DNA from: an uncultured cyanobacterium | GTDB lineage: Bacteria > Cyanobacteriota > Cyanobacteriia > Cyanobacteriales > CAWUOF01 | Length of the DNA stretch: 64,000 nt | Direction: 5' to 3' | NCBI GenBank assembly: GCA_963744145.1 | Contig: CAVUSO010000001.1 | Span: 1,678,831 to 1,742,830 of the forward strand | In this document: piece by piece, positions 35,845 to 52,522 of the stretch | Position numbering within the stretch: the first letter of the stretch is position 1 | How the letters are laid out: each line of letters opens with the position of its first letter | Notes under the pieces: model-generated | What the model was told of the DNA's origin: nothing | The model's input: only the letters and a program-made list of their open reading frames with translations | The model's database searches: none | Translations under genes and position numbers: made by a program

Positions 35845-37197
35845 ATGACCAGACAAGCAGCAATAAGCACTTTAGATTGGACCCGATCGATAGACATCAA
35901 ACCATTAATTCTACATAAAGGCAAATTACCACAAGGTCGCGATCACCAACAGCACCAAGCAGCTTATCAAGAGAATCAGGAACTTTACGCGCTGAGTGCT
36001 TTATCTCCAACAATAACAACAGTTCAGCGTGAGCGGATCTTGTTCCAACTCTTGCGATCTTCTCGAGTGGGGATGTCTCCGGAAGTACGTCGGATTTGCG
36101 ATCGGGTGGTCAAATTTCTGACTACAATCACCCATCCCGATCGCATCCTGACCATTTTTCTAGCATTACGAAGAGTTCGAGCTAATCACAAACATACATC
36201 AAGAACCATCCTCAATTATATCCTCAATCATCCTGACCTGGAAAACATGGCCAATTGCCGAAGACCCACATTGGTCGATTGTCTGGAACATGGGATGGGG
36301 CGAAATGTGGCCCGAGCTTGTGCCAAAATGCTGATTAATCCAGAGGTTGCTGATCAAAAATATTTGCACCGTCATTTGTGGAAATTTACCCGCGATCGGG
36401 AATTAATTAAGGGAATTTTCCCCTTACTTTATGGTGGGGGAATATCTCAAAAAATCGCACCACAATATCAACTTACCCATACCCAATACCTGGAAAAATT
36501 AGCAGCACAGAAAGAACGACCAAAAACTATTACAGCTACTAATCGGGGGGATATTTCTGCTACGCTGGTTCATCTTTATCGAGGGGGAAAATCTGTTGAA
36601 CTACAACAAGCATTAACAGACTACGTTGAAAAAGCTGCTCAGAAACTACCAAAATTTGAGGGTAAATTAGCAATAGTTCTTGATGCTTCTGCTTCTACTC
36701 GTGGTTATGGTGAACGGGAATATTGCTGTATTTCTCAATCAGTTGCTTGGCAATTAGTATTGGAGAAAGCTTACCCACAAACAAAAGTTTATCCTGTGGG
36801 TGGTACGGAAAAAATCCCGATTCCCCAAGGTAGCACGGATTTAGCTAGTGCTTTAGTTGATGCTTTATTAGATCAACCCGATTTAGTGGCAATTATATCC
36901 GATGGTTACGAAAATATTGTGCAAGGTGACTTAGGGAGAGTTGTTGCTACCTTACCTCAAATTGGGATTGAGACTCCCATCGTATTTTGTCATAGCAAAT
37001 TCACCAATAGTGATGACTTAAGTTTGCGACAAGCTGCACCAAATTTACCCCAGTTAGAATTCTGGCATGAAAATGATTTTGAATCATTACTAATTTCTTT
37101 AGCTGCATTAGCTAGACCAGAATTGAGTGCATCTGGTTTACGAGAATTCTTACTGAAAAAACTGGCTGAAATTGAGCAAACTTTAGCGATCGGCTAA
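35845..37197 (+). CDS. vWA (von Willebrand factor A, MIDAS DxSxS) domain protein with about 260-aa N-terminal helical domain of unknown type (possibly TROVE-like)
   Basis: MIDAS LAIVLDASASTRGYG, ...VGGTEKIPI..., AIISDGYEN; N-terminal domain unrecognised. Confidence 0.6.
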   Translation: MTRQAAISTLDWTRSIDIKPLILHKGKLPQGRDHQQHQAAYQENQELYALSALSPTITTVQRERILFQLLRSSRVGMSPEVRRICDRVVKFLTTITHPDRILTIFLALRRVRANHKHTSRTILNYILNHPDLENMANCRRPTLVDCLEHGMGRNVARACAKMLINPEVADQKYLHRHLWKFTRDRELIKGIFPLLYGGGISQKIAPQYQLTHTQYLEKLAAQKERPKTITATNRGDISATLVHLYRGGKSVELQQALTDYVEKAAQKLPKFEGKLAIVLDASASTRGYGEREYCCISQSVAWQLVLEKAYPQTKVYPVGGTEKIPIPQGSTDLASALVDALLDQPDLVAIISDGYENIVQGDLGRVVATLPQIGIETPIVFCHSKFTNSDDLSLRQAAPNLPQLEFWHENDFESLLISLAALARPELSASGLREFLLKKLAEIEQTLAIG

Positions 37198-37277
37198 TTT
37201 CTAAATATTGGTGAGGGTGGATTAATCATACACCCCACCAATCCCAACAATTTTCTTTTACCCAGGTACTCTAATAT

Positions 37278-38282
37278 ATGAAAAATCTAGACTGTCAAGC
37301 ATTAGTACCTCGTGATTTTGATCTTTCCCCCTATCAATTTGGGATACCCCAGAAGTCAGGACCAATGACGGTAGTACCGATTTTTGGTCCAGAACGTGAA
37401 GGGAAATATACAGGTCCCCTGTCAGGATTAAAACTATCACGAGTAACTGGATATGGAAGTGTAGAACTTGCTAATCCTGACACAACTGGAATTGCGATCG
37501 TACCGCTCCATATCGGTTATATTCAAGATCAAGCTCAAAATCATGCTTTGTGTCGTTCTGCTTTTATTGCTGCTGGTCAAAAACTACTTTTTGAAGATGC
37601 TTGCTGTGTGCAACAATCTCAAGGTGGTTATTTGGAAGGTCGGGAACAATGGTTTTTTGTCTTACCAGTGCAATTGCGATATGAAGCATTACAACTACGA
37701 GGAAAAAAGAGTTACAGTAAGCTCTGGAATGACATTAGTCAGCTCAATCAAAAGTTTAAATTGGCTAATCATGGTCATCTAGAGCAGATTATTACACGCC
37801 AACGAGCTTATTTAACTCAATATCAAAGTCGCTTTGAATTACTTAACAATCAAACTGGGGCGCTATTTTTTCTCAACCGTCAATTAGTGGGAATCGAAAT
37901 TGCTCCGACGATCGCTTATTTTCAAGAACTATGGATGTCCCTCGTTTGTTTCTGCTATGGTGTGGGAGCTATGTATTGGGAACAAAATGCGATCGCTGAT
38001 CCTACCTTACCCGAACCTTTTGGAGCGAAAAACCTGCTAGAATTGCAAACCCAATTGCACCAAAGTCGTTGGGATTTACAAGCGCAAGTCAGTCAGGATT
38101 TGGCTAATACTCCATCGGAGAAATTTCAGATCCATGAGGAAGAAAGATTCTGTGATTTCCAGTTAAAAACTGCTCTTGGTAAAAATTTTGCTGGACAGTT
38201 TGTGGAAAAAAAAGGAGAACTTGTTTATGCTTCTCTGTTTGCTAAATCAGAATTTGGCGTTGCTGATTTACGGTATGAATAA
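37278..38282 (+). CDS. hypothetical protein (334 aa), operon partner of the vWA protein
   Basis: Follows vWA gene by 80 bp on same strand; no recognisable domain. Confidence 0.5.
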   Translation: MKNLDCQALVPRDFDLSPYQFGIPQKSGPMTVVPIFGPEREGKYTGPLSGLKLSRVTGYGSVELANPDTTGIAIVPLHIGYIQDQAQNHALCRSAFIAAGQKLLFEDACCVQQSQGGYLEGREQWFFVLPVQLRYEALQLRGKKSYSKLWNDISQLNQKFKLANHGHLEQIITRQRAYLTQYQSRFELLNNQTGALFFLNRQLVGIEIAPTIAYFQELWMSLVCFCYGVGAMYWEQNAIADPTLPEPFGAKNLLELQTQLHQSRWDLQAQVSQDLANTPSEKFQIHEEERFCDFQLKTALGKNFAGQFVEKKGELVYASLFAKSEFGVADLRYE

Positions 38283-38288
38283 ATAATT

Positions 38289-38314
38289 TGTAGGGGCGCA
38301 TGGCCATGCGCCCC
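38289..38314 (+). terminator. GC hairpin GGGGCGCATGG-CCATGCGCCCC after operon stop (also a member of TGTAGGGGCGCA repeat family)
   Basis: Perfect 10-bp stem 9 nt after stop, followed by GATTGATTTTCAT. Confidence 0.45.
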
Positions 38315-38369
38315 GATTGATTTTCATACCCTGATTAAGCAACGCCCGGAATTTTTTTTCTCAAACTAC

Positions 38370-38399
38370 TTGACAACTGTTGGTAACCTGTAGTATATT
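38370..38399 (+). promoter_or_regulatory. sigma70-type promoter TTGACA-N18-TATATT
   Basis: Exact -35 hexamer TTGACA at 38370-38375, TATATT at 38394-38399; no ORF downstream on + strand. Confidence 0.45.
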
Positions 38400-38405
38400 G
38401 TATTA

Positions 38406-38660
38406 CATAAGGAACTAAGTTAGGTGCAGCTTGTTACCACTCCTGATGCCAGATTCGGAAGCTACTGTTAAAGTGGCGAATGACAAGTTGTAACGCTGAC
38501 TACCCGTCCTTTTACTTGCCGAGGCTAAGACAGTTAAAACGCTTGTCACCCGTCCTGTAACTAACAGGAACTGTACTAGGATCAATTGTTGCCGTGGGGC
38601 TCTTGCGGAAAGTATTCGTAAGCGAAAGGTTCAACTCCTTTCCTCGGCTTTACTAATATA
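38406..38660 (+). ncRNA. candidate about 250-nt non-coding RNA containing a 47-nt imperfect tandem duplication and a tRNA-like minihelix (acceptor-like stem + 6-bp hairpin + T-arm GAAAGG-TTCAACT-CCTTTC)
   Basis: No ORF above 26 codons; internal repeats GACAAGTTGTAACGCTGACTACCCGTCC / GACAGTTAAAACGCTTGTCACCCGTCC; 38591-38648 folds as GCCGTGG..CTTGCG-loop-CGTAAG..T-arm..CCTCGGC. Confidence 0.25.
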
Positions 38661-38714
38661 ACGTCAGTTTGACAAAGTTAAAAGATGGCAGGAGGTAGCG
38701 CTGGTAAGGATGGA

Positions 38715-38749
38715 TTGTAGGGGCGCAAGAGCAATGGGTGCCCCTACTA
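38715..38749. repeat. palindromic dispersed repeat TTGTAGGGGCGCAAGAGCAATGGGTGCCCCTACTA
   Basis: Shares GCGCAAGAGCAAT...CCCCTACT with 16074-16123 and GTAGGGGCGCA with 38289-38314. Confidence 0.5.
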
Positions 38750-38820
38750 TATCAGCAAGTGATTTAGATAGGGTTTGAAAATTTGTAAATGGGCACAGAT
38801 CGAGGCGAAGCGAGAGTTAT

Positions 38821-39765
38821 TTATCGATCGCTGAAATTTATCAAAGATAAACACTGATCTAGAGATTGTTTGACTGTTTTGACAGCTGCCTCTAAAGGCA
38901 TATTTCTGATTTTCTCATTCCATGGTTCTACAGCAACAGGTCCAGTGTAGCCTTTTTTATATAGTGCTTGTAAAAAATCAATAATCTTAGTTACTCCTGT
39001 GGTCAATGGTAATTCTCTTTCAAACTCTGGGATGCTAAACATATCATAACCAGACAACCCATCATTTAATTCTATATATAATAGATATTCTAAATCTAGA
39101 TGATGAATATCCAGTACGCTTGCGCCGCTATTTTGCCAATGATGAACATCAAATTTCAATCCACCATAACCATATATTCCTGCACTAGCAATCAGGGCGC
39201 GAGTACCATCTATAGTATGAATAAAGTCGTATTTTGTGCTGCACCTAGTTTCAGTAGGCCCGATAAACTCAAAGCCAATTTTGATATCATATTTTTGTAA
39301 AATTGGTTTTAGTTCCCGCAAGCGATCGCTAGTTTGAATAAATAGATCGTTAAAGTTACGCTCGTCGCTAAATGGTGGGAGGTAACAGAGAGTTAGCTTA
39401 CAGCCAATTTCTTGAGCTTGTTTAGCCTGTAATTCAAATTGAGGTAAATTTTCCTCAAACTCTTTTTGGCTGCCAAATAAGTTCACAGGAATGCCAAATG
39501 AAACGGGTTTTAAATTAAGCTGGCTTAGTAATTCTTTGCACTCAGAAATGCTGAACAGATTCAGCATATTAAAATCAATATTAATCCCTTCAAATCGATA
39601 TTGATGAGCCAAATTGCAAATTTTTTCAAAATCATTGACAATCTGACCAATATGTCCGCAGTGGTTTAAATTACCAATAGGAGCAGTTAAATTTAAGATG
39701 GGATACATTTTCAATTTACCTATGAAGCAAATGTTAATAATTTTAGATATTTTACTGTTAAACAC
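38821..39765 (-). CDS. sugar phosphate isomerase/epimerase (xylose-isomerase-like TIM barrel); start probably internal (MYPILNL)
   Basis: AP-endonuclease-2/TIM-barrel family pattern (GFEGINIDF..., ...VEPWNE); AT-rich. Confidence 0.65.
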   Translation of the reverse strand: MFNSKISKIINICFIGKLKMYPILNLTAPIGNLNHCGHIGQIVNDFEKICNLAHQYRFEGINIDFNMLNLFSISECKELLSQLNLKPVSFGIPVNLFGSQKEFEENLPQFELQAKQAQEIGCKLTLCYLPPFSDERNFNDLFIQTSDRLRELKPILQKYDIKIGFEFIGPTETRCSTKYDFIHTIDGTRALIASAGIYGYGGLKFDVHHWQNSGASVLDIHHLDLEYLLYIELNDGLSGYDMFSIPEFERELPLTTGVTKIIDFLQALYKKGYTGPVAVEPWNEKIRNMPLEAAVKTVKQSLDQCLSLINFSDR

Positions 39766-39823
39766 CTAAAAACAAGTTTCCCGATTCGTTCAATTCATCA
39801 CTGTACATAAGTTCAGCTAAAAT

Positions 39824-41039
39824 TCAATTTTGTAAGCCTGGTAAAATAATATTAGAAGAAGATAGGTGCGAGTTTTTTGCCACCTGCCAAGCCAAAATAC
39901 TTGCTATCAACATGGCTATTGTAAAAATCCAAAATGACCAAGATGGACTTAACATTCCGAAGACAAACCCAGTCGCAATCGGGCCAGCAATTCTAGCTAA
40001 GGCAGAAACCGATTCGGCTAAACCCAATATTTTGCCCTGCTCTCTTGCTCCAGCAGCTTGAGAAATTAGACTGCTTAACAGAGGAAAGCAAAGAAAGTTG
40101 CCACTTCTATTCAAAGCTACTGCTCCCAATACCCAAGATATAGTCGTTGAAAAGGGTAGCAAAAATGCCCCAAAACCTGATAAGAGTAATCCCCAAAAAA
40201 GTAGATTGGCTTCACCAAAACGTTTGGTAAGTCGTTCGACAAATCCAGCTTGGACAACAACAGCTACTAAACCTGAAAACATATAAATATAACCAATTTG
40301 TTGAGCATCTAAGCTTAACTGTTGTTTACACCAAATCCCCAGGATGGCACTCGTTCCTACCAACACGAAAGTATTCAAAAACAACGATAATATGAGCCAG
40401 ACTATTAATGAACTCTGGAATATCTGTGCAAAACCTAAAAAGTTTAATGAGGAATGATTATTTTGGGTTTTGACTACCTGCTGCGCTGGTTTTGACTCAG
40501 GTAGAACCAGCAAAGCAATAATAAATCCCACTAGGGACATACTAGCAGCAAATAAAGGTGGGAGAATCAAATTTGGATTTTGGGGGTTAGAACCCACCAA
40601 TATACTGCTAATAGCCGGACCCAAACATAGTCCTACTCCAAAGGCAGTTCCAATGATAGCCATGCCCTTGGCTCGGTTTTCCTTGGTCGTAATATCAGAG
40701 ATATATACCCTGATCCAGAAGTAAAGTTCCCGCCATCACTCCTTCTAATGCTCGGCAAGCAAACAGTACCCATAGAGAACTTGCACAACTCAACCACGCA
40801 TAAGCAAAACTGCTACCGATTAGACTGAGCAATAGCATAGGACGACGACCAAAGCGCTCGCTCATCATTCCCCACAAAGGTGCGAAGATAAACTGCATTA
40901 AGGCATATATGCTAAACAGTAGTGTAACTACAGTAGGCGAGGCTTCAAACTTCGAGGCGTAAAATGGCACTAAGGGTATAATGATTCCGAAACCAATCGT
41001 ATCGATCAATGCACTTAAAAACAAGATCGAGTACATCAT
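39824..41039 (-). CDS. MFS transporter, split into two ORFs by a 1-nt frameshift in a (TA)n run at about 40698-40708
   Basis: ORF 40695-41039 has MFS motif ...GMMSERFGRRPMLLL...; alternate frame across the break reads YISDITTKENRAKGMAIIGTAFG, continuous with ORF 39824-40663. Confidence 0.7.
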
Positions 41040-41584
41040 TCTATGTTTATTCCTGAGTCAACAATTTCCAACTCTAGACAATCCTTTTCGATTAGCTTGT
41101 GAGTGAAATAATCTATATCACCTGTATCAGCAAGCTCTAAGTTATAGAAATCTACGAAATCATCATCGAAAAAAGGCCCAGCGTGCCAAACGCCCATTCC
41201 TATTTTAATAAAGCAATTACCAGGAATCCTAAAGGCAGTTAGTTTCTCTATTTCTGGTCGTTCTACCTCCGTTGGCGGAGCAACAACAATAAACCAGTCT
41301 TTTCCAATAGATCCTATACATTGATTGCATTCAAGGTGGCGCACTATTCTGTCAACATTTCGACCAGTTTTTTTCAAGCGCATACCCCAAAAAAAAGGAG
41401 TGCCATTTTCCAGGTTTAATACAACACCACCGCTTCGATCAGAAGGTCTGCCATTAAATGTACCCTGATCGTGAGCAGTGATTAATTCTCCAAAGGGTTG
41501 AAAGCTTTCTGATGTAATCCACTCAGCACGAACTTTTTTAGTTTGATAATCTGTAGTCATGGTAATTCTTTTGCCTCCAAGCAA
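41036..41584 (-). CDS. cupin-fold protein, ureidoglycolate lyase (AllA)-like
   Basis: FQPFGELITAHDQGTFNGRPSDR...VVLNL resembles ureidoglycolate hydrolase family N-terminus; assignment tentative. Confidence 0.45.
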   Translation of the reverse strand: MLGGKRITMTTDYQTKKVRAEWITSESFQPFGELITAHDQGTFNGRPSDRSGGVVLNLENGTPFFWGMRLKKTGRNVDRIVRHLECNQCIGSIGKDWFIVVAPPTEVERPEIEKLTAFRIPGNCFIKIGMGVWHAGPFFDDDFVDFYNLELADTGDIDYFTHKLIEKDCLELEIVDSGINIE

Positions 41585-41656
41585 ATTCAGAACTTAGTTT
41601 TATTTTCAAAATGAAGCTGATGTACTTCTAAACTATTCTCAACCATGATTCCTCCT

Positions 41657-43123
41657 TTAATTATCATTGATGTATACCAGAGCTTTTTCCCACACAACTT
41701 TGGCAACTTGGCGACCAAGTTTTAAGCCTTCGATATGATCGGATTGGAGATGAGATCCACCATATAATTGCGAAATTCCTGCGGCTTCTGCTATAGATGT
41801 GAAAGTAGGAAATGAAAGGGTTACATTAGTTTCAAATCCTGGTTCGGTTAAAGCACCAGCCTTCACGGTGAACGATTCCCCAAAGTAGTCACTCCCAGTA
41901 AAGAGTTTGAGAATTTCAGCACAAGCAGCACTTACTGCGCTATGCCCAGCAACATAGCCCGGAAATGGTGGTGTGGTGAAACTATACGGTGAATAAGGAT
42001 GCCATTGATTCCCCAACATTGTTATGGTTCCTTTCCCAGGACCACCCCACGCACGAACAGACTTTCGATCAAAATAATAATGGATCAGCGTCCAGGGCCG
42101 GGACCGATCATAGTAGCGTTTTGCGTCCCACGTCGCAATAAAGGCATCCATGACTGTGTTAGACAAAACGAAAAATAGCTTAATATCTTGATCTAGAGTG
42201 TGTTTATTTCGTCGAGCAATACTTTGCCCAAAACCTAACCAGAGCCCAGCTAGCCCAGCTTGCTGGTCCGAACCTGGTGCATCACGCATGAACTCAACTA
42301 GAGCTTTTTGTTCAGCAGTTAAGTTCGCACTCATTTCCAAAACTTGTTGAGCTTGCTGATCCAGTTGTTCGGAACCGACACTGGGTGGTGCAGGCGGTAG
42401 AAACTGATCGGGCCGCAACAGCGCAAAAGGCTTGACTCGATACCAATGAGGAGTCAAAAATTTTGGTGTCAGTGTTTCACCTTTGGAATCTACCAAAGAA
42501 ATGGGCTGCCAATGGTTTGGATCTACGATTTTATCTACGGTATTGATTGGTTGATAAAAAGTGTAATCTGAGTAGGGCAATCCATTGGAGCCAAATTCAT
42601 CCCCTAGTTGATTTGCACCATCATGATGTCGGTACTCAAGAATTGCTGCTGCAACAGTGTTTCCAATTCCTTGCGGAGTTGTTTTGTCCGTTGAATAGTC
42701 ATCTGCATTGAATCCGAATTTCCGCATTTGAGATGCAAGATAAGCAGATTCTTCTGGATACATATCAACTAAAGTACGATAAGCAGCAAAGCTAATTGCT
42801 TTGGTTTGGTAAGTTAAACTCCTTTCTGATGCAGGACGACGCAATGTTCCTCCCAGACTATTTCCAATAGCTTTTTCGTCATAAGCAGCCCAAGCATCGA
42901 ACATTACCGTTCCTAAAATAGCTAACGCCCGAGAGGTAACTGTTGGTCTAGTTCGATGACGAGCTACATCATGGGATATTGTTTTAAAAGCGACATCCCA
43001 CCACTGAAAAGCAATGCTTGGTTTCCAGCTTGAAGCACTTTTTGGTATTTGAGCATCTGCTGGCGCCAAAGACAAAAATAGCAATAGTAGGGTAATTATG
43101 AATGGCGTTAAACATTTTAACAT
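41657..43123 (-). CDS. secreted vanadium-dependent haloperoxidase (PAP2 superfamily)
   Basis: Signal peptide; vanadate-site motifs DAFIATWDAKRYYDRSRPW, PGYVAGHSAVSAA, SQLYGGSHLQSD. Confidence 0.75.
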   Translation of the reverse strand: MLKCLTPFIITLLLLFLSLAPADAQIPKSASSWKPSIAFQWWDVAFKTISHDVARHRTRPTVTSRALAILGTVMFDAWAAYDEKAIGNSLGGTLRRPASERSLTYQTKAISFAAYRTLVDMYPEESAYLASQMRKFGFNADDYSTDKTTPQGIGNTVAAAILEYRHHDGANQLGDEFGSNGLPYSDYTFYQPINTVDKIVDPNHWQPISLVDSKGETLTPKFLTPHWYRVKPFALLRPDQFLPPAPPSVGSEQLDQQAQQVLEMSANLTAEQKALVEFMRDAPGSDQQAGLAGLWLGFGQSIARRNKHTLDQDIKLFFVLSNTVMDAFIATWDAKRYYDRSRPWTLIHYYFDRKSVRAWGGPGKGTITMLGNQWHPYSPYSFTTPPFPGYVAGHSAVSAACAEILKLFTGSDYFGESFTVKAGALTEPGFETNVTLSFPTFTSIAEAAGISQLYGGSHLQSDHIEGLKLGRQVAKVVWEKALVYINDN

Positions 43124-44298
43124 GATGTTTTGTCAAGAACTCTTTTCACTAACTCCTGGTCAACCGTCACCAAAAAATCTCCTTCAGGGTTATAACATTT
43201 GCCAACTTTCTCCAATAACACAAAGCGGAGAGCTTCCCCTGTTTTTTTATTATCTGTAATCATCGCAGCCATGAGCTTTTCTGTGGTGATTCCAGCCGGA
43301 AACGGATTGTTAAAACCAAGCTTTTTTTCAATTACATAGTAATGTCGTTCCACATCTTCTTGTGAGATTAATCCAAGCTCTTTAGAAAGCTCGGCAGCAA
43401 TTTTCATTCCAAATGAAACTGCTTCTCCGTGAGAAACTTTACCCTGTTCGAGCCATTCAATTCCATGACCAAAGGTATGACCGTACTCAAGAATAATTCC
43501 ATAGTGTTTCTCGCTGGGATCTTGCTTGATAATTTTTAATTTTGAGATGATGATATTATAGACTAGTTTGGATAATTCTTCGTCGGTAAACTTAACATCA
43601 GGATTGAGAACTTCTTCTAAATATTCCAAAAATTTTGCATCAGAAATAAAGCCATTTTTGATTCCTTCAATTATGCCACTTCGCTTAGAAAAAGCTGGTT
43701 CTGTTCTCAAATATTGCGTATCTACCCAAATAAACATAGGTGCGTGATAGAGTCCAAAATGATTTTTTCCGGTTTTACCATTAATAGCCTGTTTATTACT
43801 TAGCGTACTGTCAGTTTGACCAGTCATAGTTGTGGGAATTTCGATAAACCTGATACCTCTATAAATTAACCCAGCAGCTAGACCAACAACATTTCCAACT
43901 GTCCCCCCACCAAAAGATATCAAAATAGATTTTTTGGAAACACCTTTTTCAATTAAGTTTTCACAAGTTTTTTCCAGTACTGGAAAATATTTACATCTTT
44001 CGCCAGGAGGAACAAATTCTAAGAAACAAGTGAAGTTTTCGCGAAGCTTTTCATATAGAGACTTTCCGTATAAATCAAATAAATGTGGTTCAGTAAAGAA
44101 GAATATTTTATCAAAAGTATACTTCTCTAACTCAGACAGAAAACCATGCTCTATGTCATAGCCGAAATAAAAAGGACTCGGGTTTGCTAGCTCTGTACTT
44201 AATTCCATTACTTTTCCTCGTTCAATTTTAAAAGATTGCCAATAATCAACTCTTAAATTTTGCCCTAAAATATTGTGACCCTGATCTGCTATTTTCAT
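43117..44298 (-). CDS. 3-dehydroquinate-synthase-like sugar-phosphate cyclase (DHQS / EEVS / DDGS superfamily)
   Basis: SFGGGTVGNVVGLAAGLIYRGIRFIEIPTTMTGQTDS, NGKTGKNHFG, YGHTFGHGIE metal-binding motif; 7-bp overlap with haloperoxidase gene; AT-rich. Confidence 0.8.
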   Translation of the reverse strand: MKIADQGHNILGQNLRVDYWQSFKIERGKVMELSTELANPSPFYFGYDIEHGFLSELEKYTFDKIFFFTEPHLFDLYGKSLYEKLRENFTCFLEFVPPGERCKYFPVLEKTCENLIEKGVSKKSILISFGGGTVGNVVGLAAGLIYRGIRFIEIPTTMTGQTDSTLSNKQAINGKTGKNHFGLYHAPMFIWVDTQYLRTEPAFSKRSGIIEGIKNGFISDAKFLEYLEEVLNPDVKFTDEELSKLVYNIIISKLKIIKQDPSEKHYGIILEYGHTFGHGIEWLEQGKVSHGEAVSFGMKIAAELSKELGLISQEDVERHYYVIEKKLGFNNPFPAGITTEKLMAAMITDNKKTGEALRFVLLEKVGKCYNPEGDFLVTVDQELVKRVLDKTSC

Positions 44299-44417
44299 TT
44301 GCCACCATCGCTTTTTTTATTAAAATTAACGTTTTTTGTACATATTTTGAGCGCTATTGGCAAACGTAGCCCGAACTGACCGCCTTTTCAGACGAGCGGC
44401 CCAGTAGTTCGCGGATG

Positions 44418-44554
44418 CGGGCTCTCCCGTACTTGTGGTGGAAAATCCCGTTTTTCGGCAGGGGAAGAGGGGCAGAGAGCAGGGGGAAAGCTTATGTAGT
44501 AAGCGTTTGGAAATTCAATAATTTTTACTGATCACCACAAGTACGGGAGAGCCG
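44418..44554. repeat. long-range inverted repeat: 23-bp arms CGGGCTCTCCCGTACTTGTGGTG / CACCACAAGTACGGGAGAGCCG separated by about 90 bp G-rich spacer
   Basis: Perfect arms read directly; lies between stop of 44561-45736 gene and start of DHQS-like gene. Confidence 0.5.
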
Positions 44555-44560
44555 TCAATT

Positions 44561-45736
44561 TTAGCTCGAACTAATCGAATCATGACCGAGGAGTTCGACG
44601 ATCGCTTGTCGTTCAGCCGCAGTTTGAGTGGGCATATCGGAACGAGCATCGGTGATCAGCCAATCGAGGGACGCAGCTTGAACATCGATCGAAGCACCAG
44701 TTTTATCAACACAGTAACGACCAAATACTAATTTATCGACCAAACGCACACCTGGTCCTAAACGGGAATATTCAAAAATCACACTATTATCAACCATCGC
44801 TTCACTACAAATGCGACAATTCGGACCAATCATCGTTGGACCAATAATTTTAGCGCCATTTTCAATCCGACTCATCCCACCAATATAGACCGGTCCTTTG
44901 ATGTCCACTTTGTCCCATTCGATCGCCACATTCAACCCGGTATAGATACCAGGAAAAATTTCGCGACCAGGGATCGCCACATTTTTAATTTCTCCGAGTA
45001 ACACACCACGGATCGCTCGCCAATAGTCAGGAACTTTCCCAATATCTACCCATTGGAAATCCATTTTAATCCCGTAAAAGGGAGCATTCATTTCTACTAA
45101 TTTCGGGAAAAGTTGACTACCAATGTCATATTCACAGCCAGAGGGAATATATTCTAAAACTTCTGGCTCAAAAATATAAATCCCTGTATTAATGTTGGTA
45201 CTAAGGGCTTTTTCGATCGGCGGTTTTTCTTGAAAGGCTTTAATTTTGCCAGTTTCGTCAGTTACGACTACTCCATAGCTAGAAACTTCTTCGCGGGGCA
45301 CCGATTTCATCACGATCGTCGCGATCGCTTTCTTTTCTTTATGTAGCTTTACGGCGGCAGCTAAATCTAAATCAATCAGAGCATCTCCACATAAAACCAC
45401 AAAAGTATCATCAAAAAACGGATAAAAGTCCTGGATGCGACGCATTCCTCCTGCTGACCCTAATGCTTCCCCTAACAATTGCCCTTCTACAATCCGACCT
45501 TCAAAGGAATAAGCAATTTCTACACCAAAACGTTGACCATCTCGAAAATAATTCTCAATCTCATTGGCCAGGTGACTGACATTGACCATGATTTGGTCAA
45601 ACCCGTGCTGGCGCAGTAATTCCACTAAAAACTCCATGACTGGCTTTTGCAGAATCGGAATCATTGGCTTGGGAGTAGTGAAGGTAATGGGGCGAACACG
45701 AGTACCCTTACCTGCTGCCAGAATCATGGCTTTCAT
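44561..45736 (-). CDS. NDP-sugar pyrophosphorylase (mannose-1-phosphate guanylyltransferase-like) with C-terminal LbH domain
   Basis: MKAMILAAGKGTRVRPIT nucleotidyltransferase signature; C-terminal hexapeptide repeats. Confidence 0.8.
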   Translation of the reverse strand: MKAMILAAGKGTRVRPITFTTPKPMIPILQKPVMEFLVELLRQHGFDQIMVNVSHLANEIENYFRDGQRFGVEIAYSFEGRIVEGQLLGEALGSAGGMRRIQDFYPFFDDTFVVLCGDALIDLDLAAAVKLHKEKKAIATIVMKSVPREEVSSYGVVVTDETGKIKAFQEKPPIEKALSTNINTGIYIFEPEVLEYIPSGCEYDIGSQLFPKLVEMNAPFYGIKMDFQWVDIGKVPDYWRAIRGVLLGEIKNVAIPGREIFPGIYTGLNVAIEWDKVDIKGPVYIGGMSRIENGAKIIGPTMIGPNCRICSEAMVDNSVIFEYSRLGPGVRLVDKLVFGRYCVDKTGASIDVQAASLDWLITDARSDMPTQTAAERQAIVELLGHDSISSS

Positions 45737-45874
45737 AAATCTTTATTCCTCAACCTCGGCCCTGGGATTTTGGCCACTTTGTTATTTTAGAGCTAATATC
45801 ATCAAATCAGCACGAAAATTATTGTCTGATGTGATAGTTTGACAGAAATAACTGCTAATGCACTAACCTAGCAG

Positions 45875-46717
45875 TTATTTTTTCAAATTATGTTGATGTA
45901 AATTTGCAGATTTAGATTTTAACTCAGATCGGTCTGCGGTTTTTGGTAATTCTGACAAAGGTCTAATTTTTAGATCAGAGTAGAACTCAGTTTGAACCAA
46001 TTCGACTTTTGACTGAGCTGACAGCAGTAACAAAGCCCAAAAAACCCCCACCCGATCGCTATGTTTAGGTTCTAAGTCTACTGTAGTCTGAGGACGATGG
46101 GTTTTCCAGAACAATAATAACTGTTCTAAATCCAGCCAATCTGTTTCCGGTGCTAAATCGGGCCATTTTTCTCGCAAAAACTGTTCTAATTCACCAGCAG
46201 TTTCTGATAAATTTTCCTGGTGAGCTAATTCAGTAATATCGCGAGCCGCTTGAGCGCCACTTTGAGGACGGGGGCGTCGATGGGTCGGACGCTGGGGCTT
46301 ATCTTGCAAATCCTGAGCTAACTGCTGCAATTGAGCAATCAACTCCGTCAGACTAACAGGTCTTTTTTGTTTCGGTTGAGCAACAGCACAACGTCGTAGT
46401 TGACGCTCTAAATGTAATGGTAACTGGGTGGTAGGGTCGGTTTCTAGGGTAAGAATTTCTGGACTCGACTCCGTTTCGGCTTCATCTTCGCTCGCTGCTA
46501 AACTCTCGGCTTTGAGTAACACTAACATTGACGCATACAAAAAAGCTTGTCCCGATTCAGATAAATCGGCTTCATAGGAGCTAGTTTCGTTAAATGGTGC
46601 TAATTCGTTTAAACATCGATCAATTACGGCAATTACCTGGACATCCCAGGGGTCAATCTCCCCCCGCTCTGTCATTTCGATCAGTAAGGCGATCGCTTCC
46701 TGGGCTGGAGAAACCAT
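45875..46717 (-). CDS. scpA: segregation and condensation protein A (kleisin)
   Basis: N-terminal EAIALLIEMTERGEIDPWDVQVIAVIDRCL typical ScpA; acidic middle; C-terminal winged helix. Confidence 0.65.
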   Translation of the reverse strand: MVSPAQEAIALLIEMTERGEIDPWDVQVIAVIDRCLNELAPFNETSSYEADLSESGQAFLYASMLVLLKAESLAASEDEAETESSPEILTLETDPTTQLPLHLERQLRRCAVAQPKQKRPVSLTELIAQLQQLAQDLQDKPQRPTHRRPRPQSGAQAARDITELAHQENLSETAGELEQFLREKWPDLAPETDWLDLEQLLLFWKTHRPQTTVDLEPKHSDRVGVFWALLLLSAQSKVELVQTEFYSDLKIRPLSELPKTADRSELKSKSANLHQHNLKK

Positions 46718-47119
46718 TAACTTAACTCCGGGTGATTATTTATCATGTTTTGTTAACTCTGGAGTTTTATTTGCATGATCTTTAGTGTTAAATTTTATAA
46801 CCAGGGCAGGAGTAAGTCCAACTGCTCACGGAGATTGAGGATTGCCGAAAATAGTGTGGCACTAGCAGGGAGAGCTAACTAATGTTAAAAATAGGTTATC
46901 CCTCTAGACTAACCAATATTAGTTCTACTATAGTTCTAATAACTTTTCTGGCTAATCTTTTCAAGTAAATCTAGCTACATCAGGAGGGGCTAGTAATTAA
47001 ATCAGCACATATATCTAGTTGCTAGTATTGTCGCTTGCTGGTATTCTCGGTATAGCAACTCCCATGAGCTAATCACCAAGTTAGCGTTAAAATTTTAATA
47101 ACTGATTGTCGTCAAAGTA

Positions 47120-50100
47120 ATGAATATGATTAACATTCCTGGTATAGCTGTTCTCGCTCTCATATATGAAAGCGCTAACTCATTGGTTTATAGAGGGAGA
47201 AGAGAGGAAGATGATCAGCCACTAATTCTCAAACTATTAAAAGAAGATTATCCTAGCCCAGCCGCGCTGACTAGATATAAACAAGAATATGAAATTACTT
47301 GTTCTTTAAATCTGACTGGTGTAGTGAGAGCTTATGATTTATATAAATATCAAAATTCGTTAGTAATGGTTTTAGAGGATTTTGGAGGAGAATCCTTAAG
47401 GATTTTGATGAATTCCCAAAGATTTACCCTGTTAGGTATCCTAACGCTCGCGATTAAAATAGCTGAAAGTTTGGGAGAAATTCATGCAGCTAATATTATT
47501 CACAAAGATATTAATCCTTCTAACATAGTGTTTAATCCAGCCACTGGACAACTGAAACTAATTGATTTTAGTATTTCTACCGTATTAAGTCGCGAAAATC
47601 CTACCTTAAAAAATCCTGCTGTTTTGGAAGGTACTTTTGCTTATATGTCTCCAGAACAAACTGGAAGAATGAATCGAGCTTTAGATTATCGGACTGATTT
47701 TTATTCTCTCGGTGTGACTTTCTACGAACTTCTGACCCAGAAAGTACCTTTTCCAAGTACCGATCCAATGGAATTAGTCCATAGTCATATTGCTAAACAA
47801 CCCATTCCACCCCATGAGGTTAATCTAGAAATTCCGAAAACTCTGTCTGATATCGTGATGAAGTTATTAGCAAAGACAGCTGAGGAAAGATATCAAAGTG
47901 CTTATGGATTAAAAGCAGATTTAGAAAAATGTTTGACCCAATTACAGACAATTGGCTATATTGAAGATTTTCCGATCGGTAGTCAAGATATTTCTGACAA
48001 ATTTCAAATTCCCCAAAAACTCTATGGTCGAGAAAAAGAAGTAGAAAACTTGATGTCAGCTTTTGAAAGGGTCAGTCGTGGTTTAACCGAAATGATGTTG
48101 GTTAAAGGTTATTCCGGGATTGGTAAATCAGCTTTAGTTCAAGAAATTTATAAACCGATTACTAGAAATCGCGGCTATTTTATTGCTGGGAAATTTGATC
48201 AATTTCAACGGACTATTCCCTATTCAGCAGTAGTGATTGCTTTTTCAGAATTAGTCAGGCTATTGTTAACTGAAAGTGAAGCTCAGTTAACTAAGTGGAA
48301 AAAAAAGATTCTCCATGCAGTTGGACCAAATGGTCAAATTATTATTGATGTCATTCCCGAAGTAGAATTGATTATCGGTCCTCAACCCCCAGTTCAAGAA
48401 TTAAAACCAGCAGAATCCCAAAATCGCTTTAATCTAGTTTTTCAAAATTTTATTAAAGTCTTTTGTTCGCGAGAACATCCCTTAGTGATATTTCTTGATG
48501 ATTTACAGTGGGCTGACTCAGCTACCCTGAAATTGATCGAGCTAATGATGACAGATGACCAAATTCATTATCTATTTTTAATTGGTGCTTATCGTGATAA
48601 TGAAGTGAATCTAACTCATCCATTAATGATCATGCTGGATGGGTTAGAAAAAGAAAGAGTAGTGATTAATGAAATTGCCCTAGCACCATTAGATTTGGAA
48701 CAGGTAAATAAATTAATTAGTGAAACTTTACATAGTGAAGCGATCGCAGTTAAACCATTAGCGGAATTGGTAATCAATAAAACCGATGGTAATCCCTTTT
48801 TCGTTAATGAATTTCTGAAGACTCTCTACCAAGAAAATCTCATTACCTTCGTCCCTCCATCATCTGGTCAACAAGCAGGATGGCACTGGGATATAGCTCA
48901 TATTCATAGAATGGATATCACCAATAATGTGGTAGAGCTAATGATCGGTAAATTGAAAAAGCTCCCAGAAGGAACGCAACAGGTTTTACGTTTAGTAGCT
49001 TGTTTGGGGAACCAATTCGATCTCAATAACCTCTGTCTCATTTATGAAAAACAAGCATCAGAAACTTTCCAAGACCTTTGGCCCGCTATTCAAGAGGGAT
49101 TAATTTTACCAGTTTCAGAATTAGAAGCAGTCGAGATAGAATTAATTAGTCTACCTTTACTAATTCTCAATTATAAATTCCTGCACGATCGAGTACAACA
49201 GGCAGCTTATGCTTTAATTGATGATGCAGATAAAAAGAAAGTTCATCTAAAAATTGGCCGACTTTTATTAGCTAGTACCCCAGTAGAATATCGGTCAGAA
49301 AGAATATTTGAACTGGTTGATCACTTAAATGTAGGGATATCCTTACTGACCGATGAAGAAGAAAAATTAGAATTAGCTAGATTAAACTTAGAAGCTGGCA
49401 AAAAAGCGAAAAAAGCCACTGCTTATGTAGCAGCTCAACAATATCTAGCAGTAGGGATGGAGGTAGTAACAGAAGAGACTTGGAGCGAAGATTATGATTT
49501 AGCTTTCGATTTATATAAAGAACAAGCAGATACCGAGTATTTAAACGGTAACTTTGAGAAATCACAAGAATTAATTAATATTACTTTAAGCCGCGCCAAA
49601 ACCAAATTAGAAAAAGCTGAACTTTATAAACAATTAGTTGTTCAGCATACCATGAAAGCCGAATATGAAAGCGCAATAAACGCAGGGAAACAAGCCCTTA
49701 ATATCTTAGGAATTGACTTACCAGATACTGACTTTCAAACTGTTTTTGCATCTGAAGTTGCCCAAGCAAAAGCACTTTTGGGAGATCAAGAAATTGCCAG
49801 TTTGATCGATAAACCAGAAATTACATCAACCGAGAAAAGATTTGCCTTAATTTTGTTAAATAATTTAGCATCACCTATTTATATGTATAAACCAGAGCTG
49901 TGGAGTGTTGATTTAACCAAAGCTCTCAATGTAACTTTAGAGTATGGATTATGCCCAGAAGCAGCTCTGACTTATGCTAATTATGGGATGATTTTATCAG
50001 CATTTTTTAAAGACTATAAAAATGCTTATGAATTTGGCTTACTCGGATATAAATTATCTCAAAGATCGGATAATTTGGAAATAAAAAATAAAGTTTATAC

Positions 50101-52522
50101 TATATTTGGTAATACTTTGATGTATTGGTTTAAACATATGAAAGAAATACATTCCATTAATAATGATGCCTTTCAAGCCGCTTTGGATTCGGGCGATTTG
50201 CAGTTTGCTGGTTATATCTTAAACAATAAATTAATTAATGCTTTTAATCAAGGAAAAAGCATTCCTCATATGCTCGAAGAGGTCGCTACATACTTACAAT
50301 TTAGTAAAAAAACAAAAAATCAATTAGTTTTTGATAATGTGTTAGCATTACAATTAATTTTGCTAAATTTAAGTAAACTTACCAGCGGTAAATTTGAGTT
50401 TCAAGGTGAAATGAGTGAAGCAGATTTCTTACGAAATTGTCAAGAAAATAAAAATTTATATTCAGTCGGTAATTACCAAATTAGGAAATTACAGGTTTTA
50501 TATATTTATGGTAATTTTCAGGAAGCACTGAATTGTATTGATCAGCTCAACCAGCTCATCGCTTTTGTCGCAGCTACAATTGTAGTGACAGATTATAATT
50601 TTTTCTCTTCCCTGGTATTTCTGGCGGTTTATTTAGCAGCTAGTGAGACAGATCAAGAAATATATTGGCAGAAAATTGAAGCAAATCAAACCGAACTGAA
50701 ACTCTGGGCAGAAAATGGTCTAAGTAATTTTCTCCATAAGTATTTATTAGTGCAAGCAGAAATAGCTCGGGTGTTTGGTCGAGATATTGAAGCGATCGAT
50801 TTATATAATCGAGCCATAGTTTCAGCCCGAGAAAACGAGTTTATTCAATATGAAGCTTTAGCAAATGAACTAGCAGCCAAATTCTGGTTAAGTAAAGATC
50901 AGGCTAAGTATGCTAAATCTCACATCCATGATGCTTACTATTGCTATCAAAAGTGGGGTGCAATTCGCAAATTAGAAGATTTAGAAGAACTTTACCCCCA
51001 CTTGCTTTCCCAAAAACCATCCCAAATTCGTCTGAAAAATGCCCTAGCTACTACCACTTATACTTCAGCAAATACGGGAGCTGGAGAACTAGATTTAGCC
51101 GCAGTAATGAAAGCATCTCAAGCTATTTCCGAGTATTTGGCTCTAGATAAATTACTAGCTGCTTTAATGAAGATCTGTATTGAAAATGCTGGAGCGCAAA
51201 AAGGTTTTTTAATTTTACCTAGAGATGGAAAGTTACTAATTTCAGCCGAAGCATCAATTGATTCATCTTTATCTATAGATTTGGCTAATTCGATCGCGGT
51301 AGAATCTTCACCCTATTTACCAATTACCGTAATTAATTATGTGGAAAGAACTCGGACTGATGTAGTTTTAAGCGAAGCAGTACATGAAGGAAAATTTACT
51401 AATGATCCCTATATTATAGAACATGAATTGAAATCAATTTTGTGTACTCCCATTATTAATCAAGGTAAACTGATTGGGATTATTTATTTAGAAAATAATT
51501 TAACAGCAGGGGTATTTACACCCGAAAGACTAGAAGTTTTAAAACTTTTATCTTCTCAAGCTGCGATTTCGCTAGAAAATGCGTTGTTATATGCTTCGGT
51601 AGAACAAAAAGTCCAAGAGCGAACTCAGGAATTAAATGAAAAAAATGTCCATCTTTCCCAAACAATTCATGAATTAAGACGGACTCAAGCTCAACTAATC
51701 CAAACTGAGAAAATGTCAAGTTTAGGACAGATGGTAGCAGGGGTAGCACATGAAATCAATAATCCAGTTAGTTTTATTTATGGTAATCTGAGTCCTGCGG
51801 GTGAATATGTCCAAGATTTGCTGAATTTGATCAAATTATATCAAGACCATTATCCCGAACCACCAGATGAGATTGTGGATGAACTTGAGAATATCGATCT
51901 GGAATTTTTGGTAGAAGATTTACAAAAACTGATGGATTCGATGAAAGTAGGTGCAGAACGGATTCGGAATATTGTATTGAGTTTGCGGAATTTCTCTCGT
52001 TTGGATGAAGCATCAAAGAAACCAGTGGATATCCATGAAGGGATTGATAGTACAGTTATGCTCCTCCAACCAAAGATGAGAGAACAAGGGGAGCGATCGC
52101 AAATCGAGGTCATTAAGGATTTTGCCCAACTTCCCAAGGTAAATTGTTACGCATCTCAGGTCAATCAAGTATTTATGAATATTATTACTAATGGGATTGA
52201 TGCTTTAGAAGAACTGAGAAATAAAGCATTACATCCCGATCATCAACCAACTATTACAATTCGGACAGCGATCGCTGAGAATGAGTGTGTGCAAATTCGG
52301 ATTTCGGACAATGGTTCGGGGATGGATGAGGAAGTAATGAAGAAAGTATTTGATCCATTTTTTACTACCAAACCACCGGGATCTGGAACTGGGTTAGGTT
52401 TGTCTGTGAGTTATCAAATTATTGTTGAGAAACATGGTGGACAGTTGACCTGTAATTCCATACCTGGAACAGGTACTGAGTTTGCGATCGTGATTCCGAT
52501 CGGACATCCAGAGGATGAATAA
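47120..52522 (+). CDS. 1800-aa multidomain signalling protein: Ser/Thr kinase - AAA/NB-ARC-like ATPase - TPR-like - GAF - histidine kinase (HisKA+HATPase)
   Basis: Kinase [25 protein letters not shown]; P-loop [11 protein letters not shown]; GAF ...[18 protein letters not shown]; His[16 protein letters not shown]; HATPase DNGSGMD...GTGLGL. Confidence 0.85.

Follow-up and report, generated by a model that had tools for sequence, protein, structure and literature searches.

A cyanobacterial operon with a putative 2-deoxy-scyllo-inosose synthase-type cyclase, a TIM-barrel partner and a probably degenerate haloperoxidase-like addition

The stretch of DNA analysed here, 64,000 nucleotides of contig CAVUSO010000001.1 from an uncultured cyanobacterium (positions 1,678,831 to 1,742,830; hereafter the window), carries between its positions 38821 and 44298 five consecutive minus-strand genes that appear to form an uncharacterised operon. 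[quoted passage not shown] An initial annotation, made from the letters alone, had guessed the families of the five genes, which the six-frame listing of open reading frames (ORFs) and scans against Pfam and NCBIfam bore out, and had proposed a small cyclitol-type biosynthetic and export cluster, a proposal that the type of the cyclase, its TIM-barrel partner and a transporter of the major facilitator superfamily (MFS) support at the level of sequence.

The case begins with the cyclase. The protein belongs to the superfamily of 3-dehydroquinate synthase (DHQS), and its top match among the NCBIfam models is aroB (TIGR01357), but this match, at 256 bits, does not reach the equivalog cutoff of 305. 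Among solved structures the protein comes closest to the DOIS BtrC (2d2x), at 185 bits versus 158 bits for the best DHQS, 79 bits for the structure of ValA, an EEVS (synthase of 2-epi-5-epi-valiolone), and 76 bits for a desmethyl-4-deoxygadusol synthase (DDGS; 5tpr). The comparison of active-site residues that the initial annotation had suggested as a check agrees with DOIS and not with DHQS: LSNK169QA of the cyclase corresponds to LSIK141QA of BtrC, where DHQS has GGKTG; E211GIK214N corresponds to E183LVK186N, where DHQS has E..KY; G267 corresponds to G239, at a position held by Arg in DHQS; and E271YGHT corresponds to E243YGHT, with its Glu243, where DHQS has NLGHT, with Asn. The DHQS residue replaced by Gly is Arg264 in the Aspergillus nidulans enzyme, the Arg of the 3-deoxy-D-arabino-heptulosonate 7-phosphate (DAHP) carboxylate, and that replaced by Glu is Asn268. 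These signature positions are invariant in 18 family members that are 56-78% identical to the window cyclase, and they recur in the DOIS of Sodalis praecaptivus and Burkholderia FERM BP-3421 (our loci L141 and L142). In a tblastn search against plasmids, moreover, three genes annotated as DOIS (193-218 bits), those of Sodalis and Burkholderia among them, rank above the aroB matches (169-174 bits).

Could the gene nonetheless be the housekeeping aroB, with a neighbourhood that is mere coincidence? The top NCBIfam match would then need no further account, nor would the label 3-dehydroquinate synthase that some databases attach to its orthologues. Yet the score below the equivalog cutoff, the Gly in place of the DAHP-carboxylate Arg, the Glu in place of Asn268, a patchy distribution and a TIM-barrel partner conserved across phyla all stand against this explanation, as does the name 2-deoxy-scyllo-inosose synthase that NCBI gives to many of the orthologues, and we find it hardly credible. 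By its scores and residues, the protein is instead assigned to the non-AroB sugar-phosphate cyclases of the DOIS type, in keeping with the original suggestion of a DHQS-superfamily cyclase other than AroB.

Which genes accompany a cyclase of this kind elsewhere? Searched by pattern, a collection of 185,579 species genomes, each species represented by a single genome, gave 123 matching stretches, and the neighbourhoods of 79 loci were examined by tblastn with the window proteins and by clustering of the neighbouring ORFs. In most of the 79, a xylose-isomerase-like TIM barrel was detected beside the cyclase. TIM4, as we call the orthologue of the barrel in the window, is found in 25 of them, in Cyanobacteria, Oligoflexia, Burkholderiales and Desulfobacterota; its gene often comes straight behind that of the cyclase, and an MFS gene is often present as well. 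A different TIM barrel, TIM1, is present in 39. Short-chain dehydrogenase/reductase (SDR) genes were seen in 33 of the 79 loci and zinc-dependent alcohol dehydrogenase genes in a few; among the TIM1 loci, many of the cyanobacterial ones have the former, and those of Firmicutes and Acidobacteriota have the latter. An MFS gene and a cytochrome b561 gene are also frequent at the cyanobacterial TIM1 loci. Homologues of the VHPO-like protein, of the cupin encoded in the window operon or of the nucleotidyltransferase encoded upstream of it were near the cyclase in none of the 79 loci, and no aminoglycoside genes were seen there either.

The window TIM barrel itself matches PF01261 with 61 bits (cutoff 31), and residues E147, D187, H190, E213 and E261 are invariant in the TIM4 family, where these acidic and His side chains would serve as metal ligands. 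A profile of the family matches the uncharacterised structure 3u0h with 84 bits and Bacillus subtilis IolI with 62 bits (E 5e-16), and it gives no match to AsbF or IolE at E < 0.01. TIM1 is nearest to TM0416 of Thermotoga maritima and to ketose 3-epimerases; the two barrels are distantly related (19% identity, hhalign probability 97.6%). Given the likeness of TIM4 to IolI and of TIM1 to ketose 3-epimerases, the conserved core may be described as a keto-cyclitol synthase, a member of an isomerase/epimerase family that would act beside the carbonyl, and export. Of the relatives with a named function, IolI (PDB 1i60), which belongs to the iol operon of B. subtilis and acts on a keto-cyclitol, stands nearest to the window barrel; the similarity is distant, and IolI works in the catabolism of myo-inositol, whereas the window enzyme is coupled to a biosynthetic cyclase.

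Several of the related loci have features of their own. In marine and benthic cyanobacteria (L005, L010, L025, L040, L042 and about 30 further loci) a second architecture joins the cyclase to cytochrome b561, an MFS gene, the TM0416/ketose-3-epimerase-like TIM barrel and an SDR, which suggests an exported product of the deoxy-inositol type; we found no published description of this arrangement. Okeania has a pair of paralogous DOIS-type cyclases, each sharing about 66-70% identity with the window cyclase; their genes are adjacent in L026, are separated by one ORF in L028, and are followed by MFS, TIM1 and SDR genes. In L013, L015, L017 and L031 the gene directly after the cyclase cluster encodes a carbohydrate porin of the OprB family that has an SLH domain. 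Metagenome-assembled genomes of Desulfobacterota (L053, L054, L058, L059 and L060) have a P-type ATPase and UbiG-like and UbiE/COQ5 methyltransferases ahead of the cyclase-TIM4 pair, and in the cyanobacterial loci L003 and L043 a UbiG-like methyltransferase lies between the two genes; such neighbours hint at a methylated product.

An alternative has the same core aromatise its substrate. The TIM barrel would be a dehydratase, as are AsbF/QuiC and IolE, and would turn deoxy-inosose into a redox-active compound of the trihydroxybenzene or reductone type, which would be exported; in the periplasm, the VHPO-like protein and the cupin would then oxidise or otherwise modify it. Acid-catalysed conversion of 2-deoxy-scyllo-inosose into hydroxyquinol is established chemistry. 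Dehydratases of cyclic hydroxy-ketones do exist within PF01261, with AsbF and IolE among the matches of the TIM1 profile; the methyltransferases beside the cyclase-TIM4 pair in Desulfobacterota, and between its two genes in two cyanobacteria, would suit such a product, as would the cytochrome b561 of many type-A loci and the fact that the window cluster has no reductase. Against this, the TIM4 profile finds the isomerase IolI and 3u0h and not the dehydratases, and a literature search on inosose in combination with trihydroxybenzene, hydroxyquinol or dehydratase gave nothing relevant. We regard aromatisation as unlikely, while granting it a hearing, and keep to an isomerase or epimerase as the partner of the cyclase.

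The closest known systems are the aminoglycoside pathways that start from DOIS and the cryptic ebo cluster, and the gene sets that define them are missing from the window locus. With the DOIS of the 2-deoxystreptamine aminoglycosides (BtrC, NeoC) the cyclase shares its superfamily and its discriminating residues, BtrC being its best-scoring solved relative, at about 33-35% identity; here, by contrast, it is partnered by a TIM barrel and an exporter. Aminoglycoside clusters contain a DegT aminotransferase, a radical-SAM or zinc dehydrogenase, a glycosyltransferase and a PIG-L deacetylase, none of which is found in the window operon or within about 10 kb of it. The Sodalis and Burkholderia DOIS genes do lie in clusters of the aminoglycoside type, with DegT aminotransferase, radical-SAM/SPASM, glycosyltransferase and PIG-L deacetylase genes. 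With these hallmark genes absent from the operon and its surroundings, an aminoglycoside cluster is ruled out. A cluster for mycosporine-like amino acids is likewise ruled out, by the DDGS score of 76 bits and by the lack of an O-methyltransferase or ATP-grasp gene in the operon; the initial annotation had already remarked that the layout was not of that kind.

The ebo cluster calls for more care, for it too combines a DHQS-like synthase of a C6 cyclitol with a xylose-isomerase-like TIM barrel and is widespread in cyanobacteria, in cryptic form. The window operon might accordingly be imagined as a reduced cluster of this type, in which the cyclase would correspond to EboD and the TIM barrel to EboE, an explanation favoured by the shared pairing and by the frequency of ebo clusters in cyanobacteria (PMC5133447, PMC12904256). 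Neither the region of the window examined nor the related loci, however, hold EboA, EboB (TatD), EboC (the UbiA prenyltransferase) or EboF. EboD groups with the sedoheptulose-7-phosphate cyclases and is proximal to EEVS and DDGS, whereas the window cyclase is DOIS/DHQS-proximal and scores 76-79 bits against EEVS and DDGS structures; EboE is marginally similar to PF01261, against 61 bits for the window TIM barrel, which is of a different subfamily. The cyclase also scores 184 bits against TIGR04425, an AroB-related model with a cutoff of 400 that is probably the ebo model. Since the EboA-F gene set with its UbiA member was not found, ebo was rejected as a candidate, and descent from such a cluster by reduction seems highly improbable to us.

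If the core is conserved, what of the VHPO-like protein? Its fold is that of the VHPOs (152 bits against DUF6851, 69.5 bits against VCPO_2nd, and a PAP2 match), and its N-terminus, MLKCLTPFIITLLLLFLSLAPADA followed by Q, resembles a Sec signal by inspection. Among solved structures it is closest to esVHPO (9PTR), with 214 bits over residues 61-482, and it belongs to a large uncharacterised clade of over 5,000 proteins, most of which come from Acidobacteriota, Myxococcota and Verrucomicrobiota. With the bacterial VHPOs (esVHPO 9PTR, NapH1 3w35/3w36, NapH3 8cxl) it shares a predicted secretion, a three-part architecture with a DUF6851 N-bundle and a VCPO C-bundle, and the His, Lys and first Arg of the vanadate site; unlike them, it lacks the second Arg, one Ser and the Lys-Ser dyad of the selective enzymes. 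In esVHPO the vanadate ligands are H496, K373, R380, R490, S427 and S429 (PMC12633397). An alignment of the 120 closest homologues has Arg at the position of R490 in 118 of them, where the window protein has Q452, and Ser at the position of S427 in 116, where it has A392, so that its vanadate site is incomplete; invariant in the same alignment are the Lys, the first of the Arg residues, the two His and the Asp. Only two proteins have lost the Arg, namely the window protein and P0122 (Gly), its 80% identical orthologue in a second DOIS cluster (L081), and these are exactly the copies located in DOIS clusters. In both, Ala takes the place of the Ser as well, and the near-invariant MRDGPRSTGQSGHW loop is rewritten. 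The codon of Q452 is identical in an independent run assembly of the locus (L001, a Logan contig). As to the Lys-Ser dyad of site-selective VHPOs (K324/S427 in NapH1), the window protein has A282 and H394 in a pairwise alignment that is gapped in this region; a His at the position of the His404 type, in the numbering of CiVCPO, is likewise found in the iodoperoxidase of Zobellia.

The evolutionary pattern points the same way. Pairwise dN/dS between the window and L081, estimated after Nei and Gojobori, is 0.61 for the VHPO-like gene, compared with 0.13 for the cyclase, 0.13 for the TIM barrel, 0.16 for the cupin and 0.31 for the MFS gene. Of about 85 loci, only 2 have the gene, namely the window (together with L001) and L081, and the cupin gene is found without it in L086-L088. 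Because of this rarity, the loss of Arg and Ser, and the dN/dS, we see in the VHPO-like gene a recent accessory insertion with a degenerate cofactor site and under weak constraint, whose product is probably not a working vanadium haloperoxidase and may be either decaying or repurposed. Relatives 64-70% identical that contain the Arg are encoded in unrelated contexts (L082, L084 and L085), next to genes for a histidine-phosphatase-like protein, a formyltransferase/enoyl-CoA-hydratase fusion and TauE, and in L084 and L085 also next to the conjugative-transfer genes TraG/TrwB and TrwC.

A number of points weigh against our reading of the operon. The overall identity of the cyclase to BtrC (35.3%) is about that to a DHQS (35.1%) and does not separate the two, which is why the DOIS assignment rests on bit scores and signature residues. 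Its substrate could be a hexose phosphate other than glucose 6-phosphate; EboD, to give an example, reportedly uses mannose 6-phosphate. The type of reaction ascribed to the TIM barrel is a guess from the 62-bit profile match to IolI, and the MFS gene is broken in this assembly. The VHPO-like dN/dS is one pairwise estimate, and the protein keeps K335, R342, H394 (of the His404 type), H458 and D462; with these residues in place, and with a signal peptide, an ORF that is intact and a gene translationally coupled to that of the cyclase, it may still work, and Arg mutants of other VHPOs are reported to oxidise bromide.

The same features are the strength of the model put forward in the initial annotation, in which the locus would be a biosynthetic cluster whose product is a halogenated cyclitol or carbasugar: the haloperoxidase would halogenate what the cyclase makes, and an NDP-sugar (nucleoside diphosphate sugar) pyrophosphorylase encoded upstream would supply an activated sugar. 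Besides the retained residues, the model could draw on the 7-nt overlap that couples the VHPO-like gene to the cyclase, on the intactness of the gene in two assemblies and in the second cluster, and on a signal peptide of the sort seen in other bacterial VHPOs (PMC11312541). What it has to face is that the Arg and the Ser of the vanadate site are lost in precisely the two cluster-borne copies, that the gene has a dN/dS of 0.61 and is missing from the other 83 or so related loci examined, that the Lys/Ser dyad of enzymes of the NapH1/esVHPO type is absent, that the pyrophosphorylase is never linked to the cluster, and that there is no glycosyltransferase. A literature search returned nothing that links 2-deoxy-scyllo-inosose or DOIS with a haloperoxidase and nothing that describes this cluster. 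The model is, on balance, distinctly unlikely: halogenation is doubtful and a halogenated product improbable, a loss of halogenating activity being what the altered residues suggest.

Two further genes complete the operon. The cupin, which had been described as epimerase-type, turned out to be AllA-like: it scores 34.9 bits against PF04115 (cutoff 23), its AF2 model (pLDDT 78) matches the AllA structures 1yqc/1xsq in Foldseek with a TM of 0.63 and an E of 2e-9, and RmlC-type epimerases match the model weakly. With AllA, the ureidoglycolate lyase of PF04115, it shares the fold and the region of a conserved RH..x.Q motif; it is, however, 17-19% identical to it and has no context of purine catabolism. 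All the NCBIfam equivalog cutoffs (160-282) are missed by the cupin, and the function of AllA is for that reason not transferable. The protein is a divergent paralogue, about 50% identical, of an uncharacterised 163-residue family conserved across cyanobacteria, and its close homologues (70-89% identity) are found solely in the DOIS clusters L081 and L086-L089. In L081 the order is cyclase, VHPO-like gene, TerB-like gene, cupin, MFS and TIM4; in L086-L088 a divergent LysR gene precedes cyclase, TerB-like gene, a 65-residue ORF, cupin, MFS, TIM4 and DUF1427, and the VHPO-like gene is absent. As for the exporter, the family suggested at the outset was right (MFS_1, Tet(A)-like in the NCBIfam scan), but a frameshift had been missed: the gene is split into ORFs at 40695-41039 and 39824-40663, which match the two halves of MFS_1. 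The lesion, at 40708-40721, where the site reads CTGGATCAGG, consists of a 2-bp deletion and three mismatches relative to L001, whose MFS gene is intact and encodes 405 residues; it reflects either a mistake of the assembly or a genuine polymorphism that inactivates the gene.

The layout of the operon and its upstream flank is given in Table 1. The cyclase stop codon (TAA, 43117-43119) and the start codon of the VHPO-like gene (ATG, 43121-43123) share the sequence ATGTTAA, which confirms the 7-bp overlap reported initially, and the start of the MFS gene overlaps the stop codon of the cupin gene by 4 nt. L001 contains the same five genes at 99.9% identity, its contig ending at about 38601 in window coordinates.

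Table 1. Positions of the operon genes and of two features upstream, in window coordinates
Feature	Coordinates	Strand	Remarks
Sugar-phosphate cyclase, operon gene 1	43117..44298	-	Pfam DHQ_synthase + DHQS_C
Predicted secreted VHPO-like protein, 488 aa, accessory gene	41657..43123	-	DUF6851 + VCPO_2nd + PAP2
AllA-like cupin, 174 aa, ATG at 41560	41036..41560	-	PF04115 (Ureidogly_lyase-type), 34.9 bits
DHA1/Tet(A)-like MFS exporter, frameshifted in this assembly	39824..41039	-	MFS_1, two ORFs
Xylose-isomerase-like TIM barrel, 295 aa, ATG at 39708	38821..39708	-	PF01261 (AP_endonuc_2), 61 bits
MITE-like (miniature inverted-repeat transposable element-like) hairpin element, 134 bp	44420..44553	.	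between operon and unrelated upstream gene
NTP_transferase gene (NDP-sugar pyrophosphorylase)	44561-45736		NTP_transferase domain

The operon had been presented as part of a markedly AT-rich island, which its composition does not sustain. The GC content of the cluster is 39.0%, versus 39.6% for the window, and lies at the 30th percentile of windows of the same size; the whole interval originally singled out (38821-45736) has 40.1%, at the 55th percentile, and these percentiles rule out an AT-rich genomic island. Only the cyclase (35.4% GC) and the TIM barrel (34.4% GC) are AT-richer, the three middle genes having 39-43.5% (VHPO-like 43.5%, MFS 40-43.5%) and the flanks 40-44%. Synonymous divergence between the window and L081 forms a mosaic as well, being 0.51 for the cyclase and 0.88 for the TIM barrel but 0.17 for the VHPO-like gene, 0.27 for the cupin and 0.35 for the MFS gene. 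Divergence and GC together fit a middle module inserted between an older cyclase-TIM pair, and they suggest that the middle genes have been exchanged more recently than the pair that flanks them. The window as a whole is cyanobacterial, with 45 copies of the HIP1 octamer GCGATCGC where 0.35 would be expected, and all the close homologues are cyanobacterial too. ARAGORN found neither tRNA nor tmRNA over the window, and hence no tRNA-linked island; an Rfam scan of 36000-48000, judged by E-value, gave no match; and a promoter scan returned 19 sites against 21.1 expected from shuffled sequences, which is not above background.

Nor does the inverted repeat upstream of the cyclase mark the edge of an island, as had been supposed. 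The repeat itself is real, but its perfect arms are 21 nt long (44420-44440 and 44533-44553) and not 23 bp within 44418-44554; none of 100 shuffles gave a comparable match, and the RNA folds at -60 kcal/mol (z = -6.95). The exact 21-nt arm recurs in 49 metagenome contigs (L092-L140) whose outer flanks are unrelated, with a second arm 132-136 nt away in 5 of them, and the arm has two conserved types of inner end, both of which are present in the window element. No transposase stands consistently beside the arm in the 49 metagenome loci, so that the element can be assigned to no family of insertion sequences, and a target-site duplication is not evident. The hairpin is thus a copy of a dispersed MITE-like family and no specific boundary mark.

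On its far side lies the pyrophosphorylase gene, which had been counted as part of the cluster. The gene is real, but it is linked to the cluster in none of the 79 genome loci and in none of five further metagenome or run-assembly loci, its GC content (43.6%) is unlike that of the cluster, and the MITE-like element and a 262-bp spacer stand between them, on which grounds it was rejected as a cluster member. Together with the ScpA gene, likewise upstream of the operon, it looks like an ordinary chromosomal gene, and both are most simply regarded as unrelated housekeeping neighbours. An ARPP-1 pair, an HNH endonuclease and an 1800-residue kinase around the operon are likewise never linked to the cluster elsewhere. 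The first of these, at 35845-38282, consists of a 450-residue protein with no Pfam match followed by an ARPP-1 domain protein (PF20208), and is unrelated to the operon; the last, at 47120-52522, is a multidomain protein with Ser/Thr kinase, AAA_16, TPR, GAF, HisKA and HATPase_c domains. The 540 bp at 38283-38820 contain no ORF of 80 or more residues and no Rfam or tRNA match; a near-consensus promoter-like TTGACA-18-TATATT lies there on the plus strand (38370-38399), as do two hairpins of the GTAGGGGCGC type.

How might such an operon work? In the cytoplasm, the cyclase would act on a hexose 6-phosphate, of which glucose 6-phosphate is the likeliest, and form 2-deoxy-scyllo-inosose or an epimer close to it, which the IolI-like, presumably metal-dependent TIM barrel would then isomerise or epimerise, dehydration being the less likely reaction. 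The product would leave the cell through the MFS pump, outward transport being presumed from its family; in some relatives an OprB porin comes after the cluster. The cyclase and the xylose-isomerase-like TIM barrel, often with the MFS exporter, represent the ancestral and widely conserved core; the AllA-like cupin, coupled to the MFS gene, was added later in one small sub-branch, and the VHPO-like gene was inserted later still, in two known loci. A bolder extension, which is rather unlikely to hold in full, sees in the cyclase-TIM pair a widespread route from glucose 6-phosphate to an exported and possibly redox-active C6 carbocycle (a deoxy-inosose isomer, a reductone or a compound of the hydroxyquinol type) that would operate in cyanobacteria and several other phyla independently of aminoglycosides; by analogy with the non-halogenating NapH3, the VHPO-fold protein without Arg and Ser would here have been taken into service as a periplasmic enzyme that works on this compound independently of vanadium.

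The known part of DOIS is to open the pathways to the 2-deoxystreptamine aminoglycoside antibiotics, and yet at least 123 genome stretches carry a cyclase of this type; the 79 loci examined come from Cyanobacteria, Oligoflexia, Burkholderiales, Desulfobacterota, Firmicutes and Acidobacteriota. This conservation, with a TIM-barrel partner in most of the 79 and no aminoglycoside genes seen at any, suggests that a family of small C6-cyclitol metabolites destined for export has gone unrecognised; its standing would be like that of the cryptic ebo pathway. The VHPO-like gene, for its part, would offer a natural case of a haloperoxidase-fold protein that lost its cofactor site after recruitment into an operon, and it cautions against inferring halogenation from annotation alone. 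The locus is of interest mainly for its conserved core of cyclase and TIM barrel, and less for the idea of halogenation, and this core, comprising two genes, is simple enough for a direct test in vitro.

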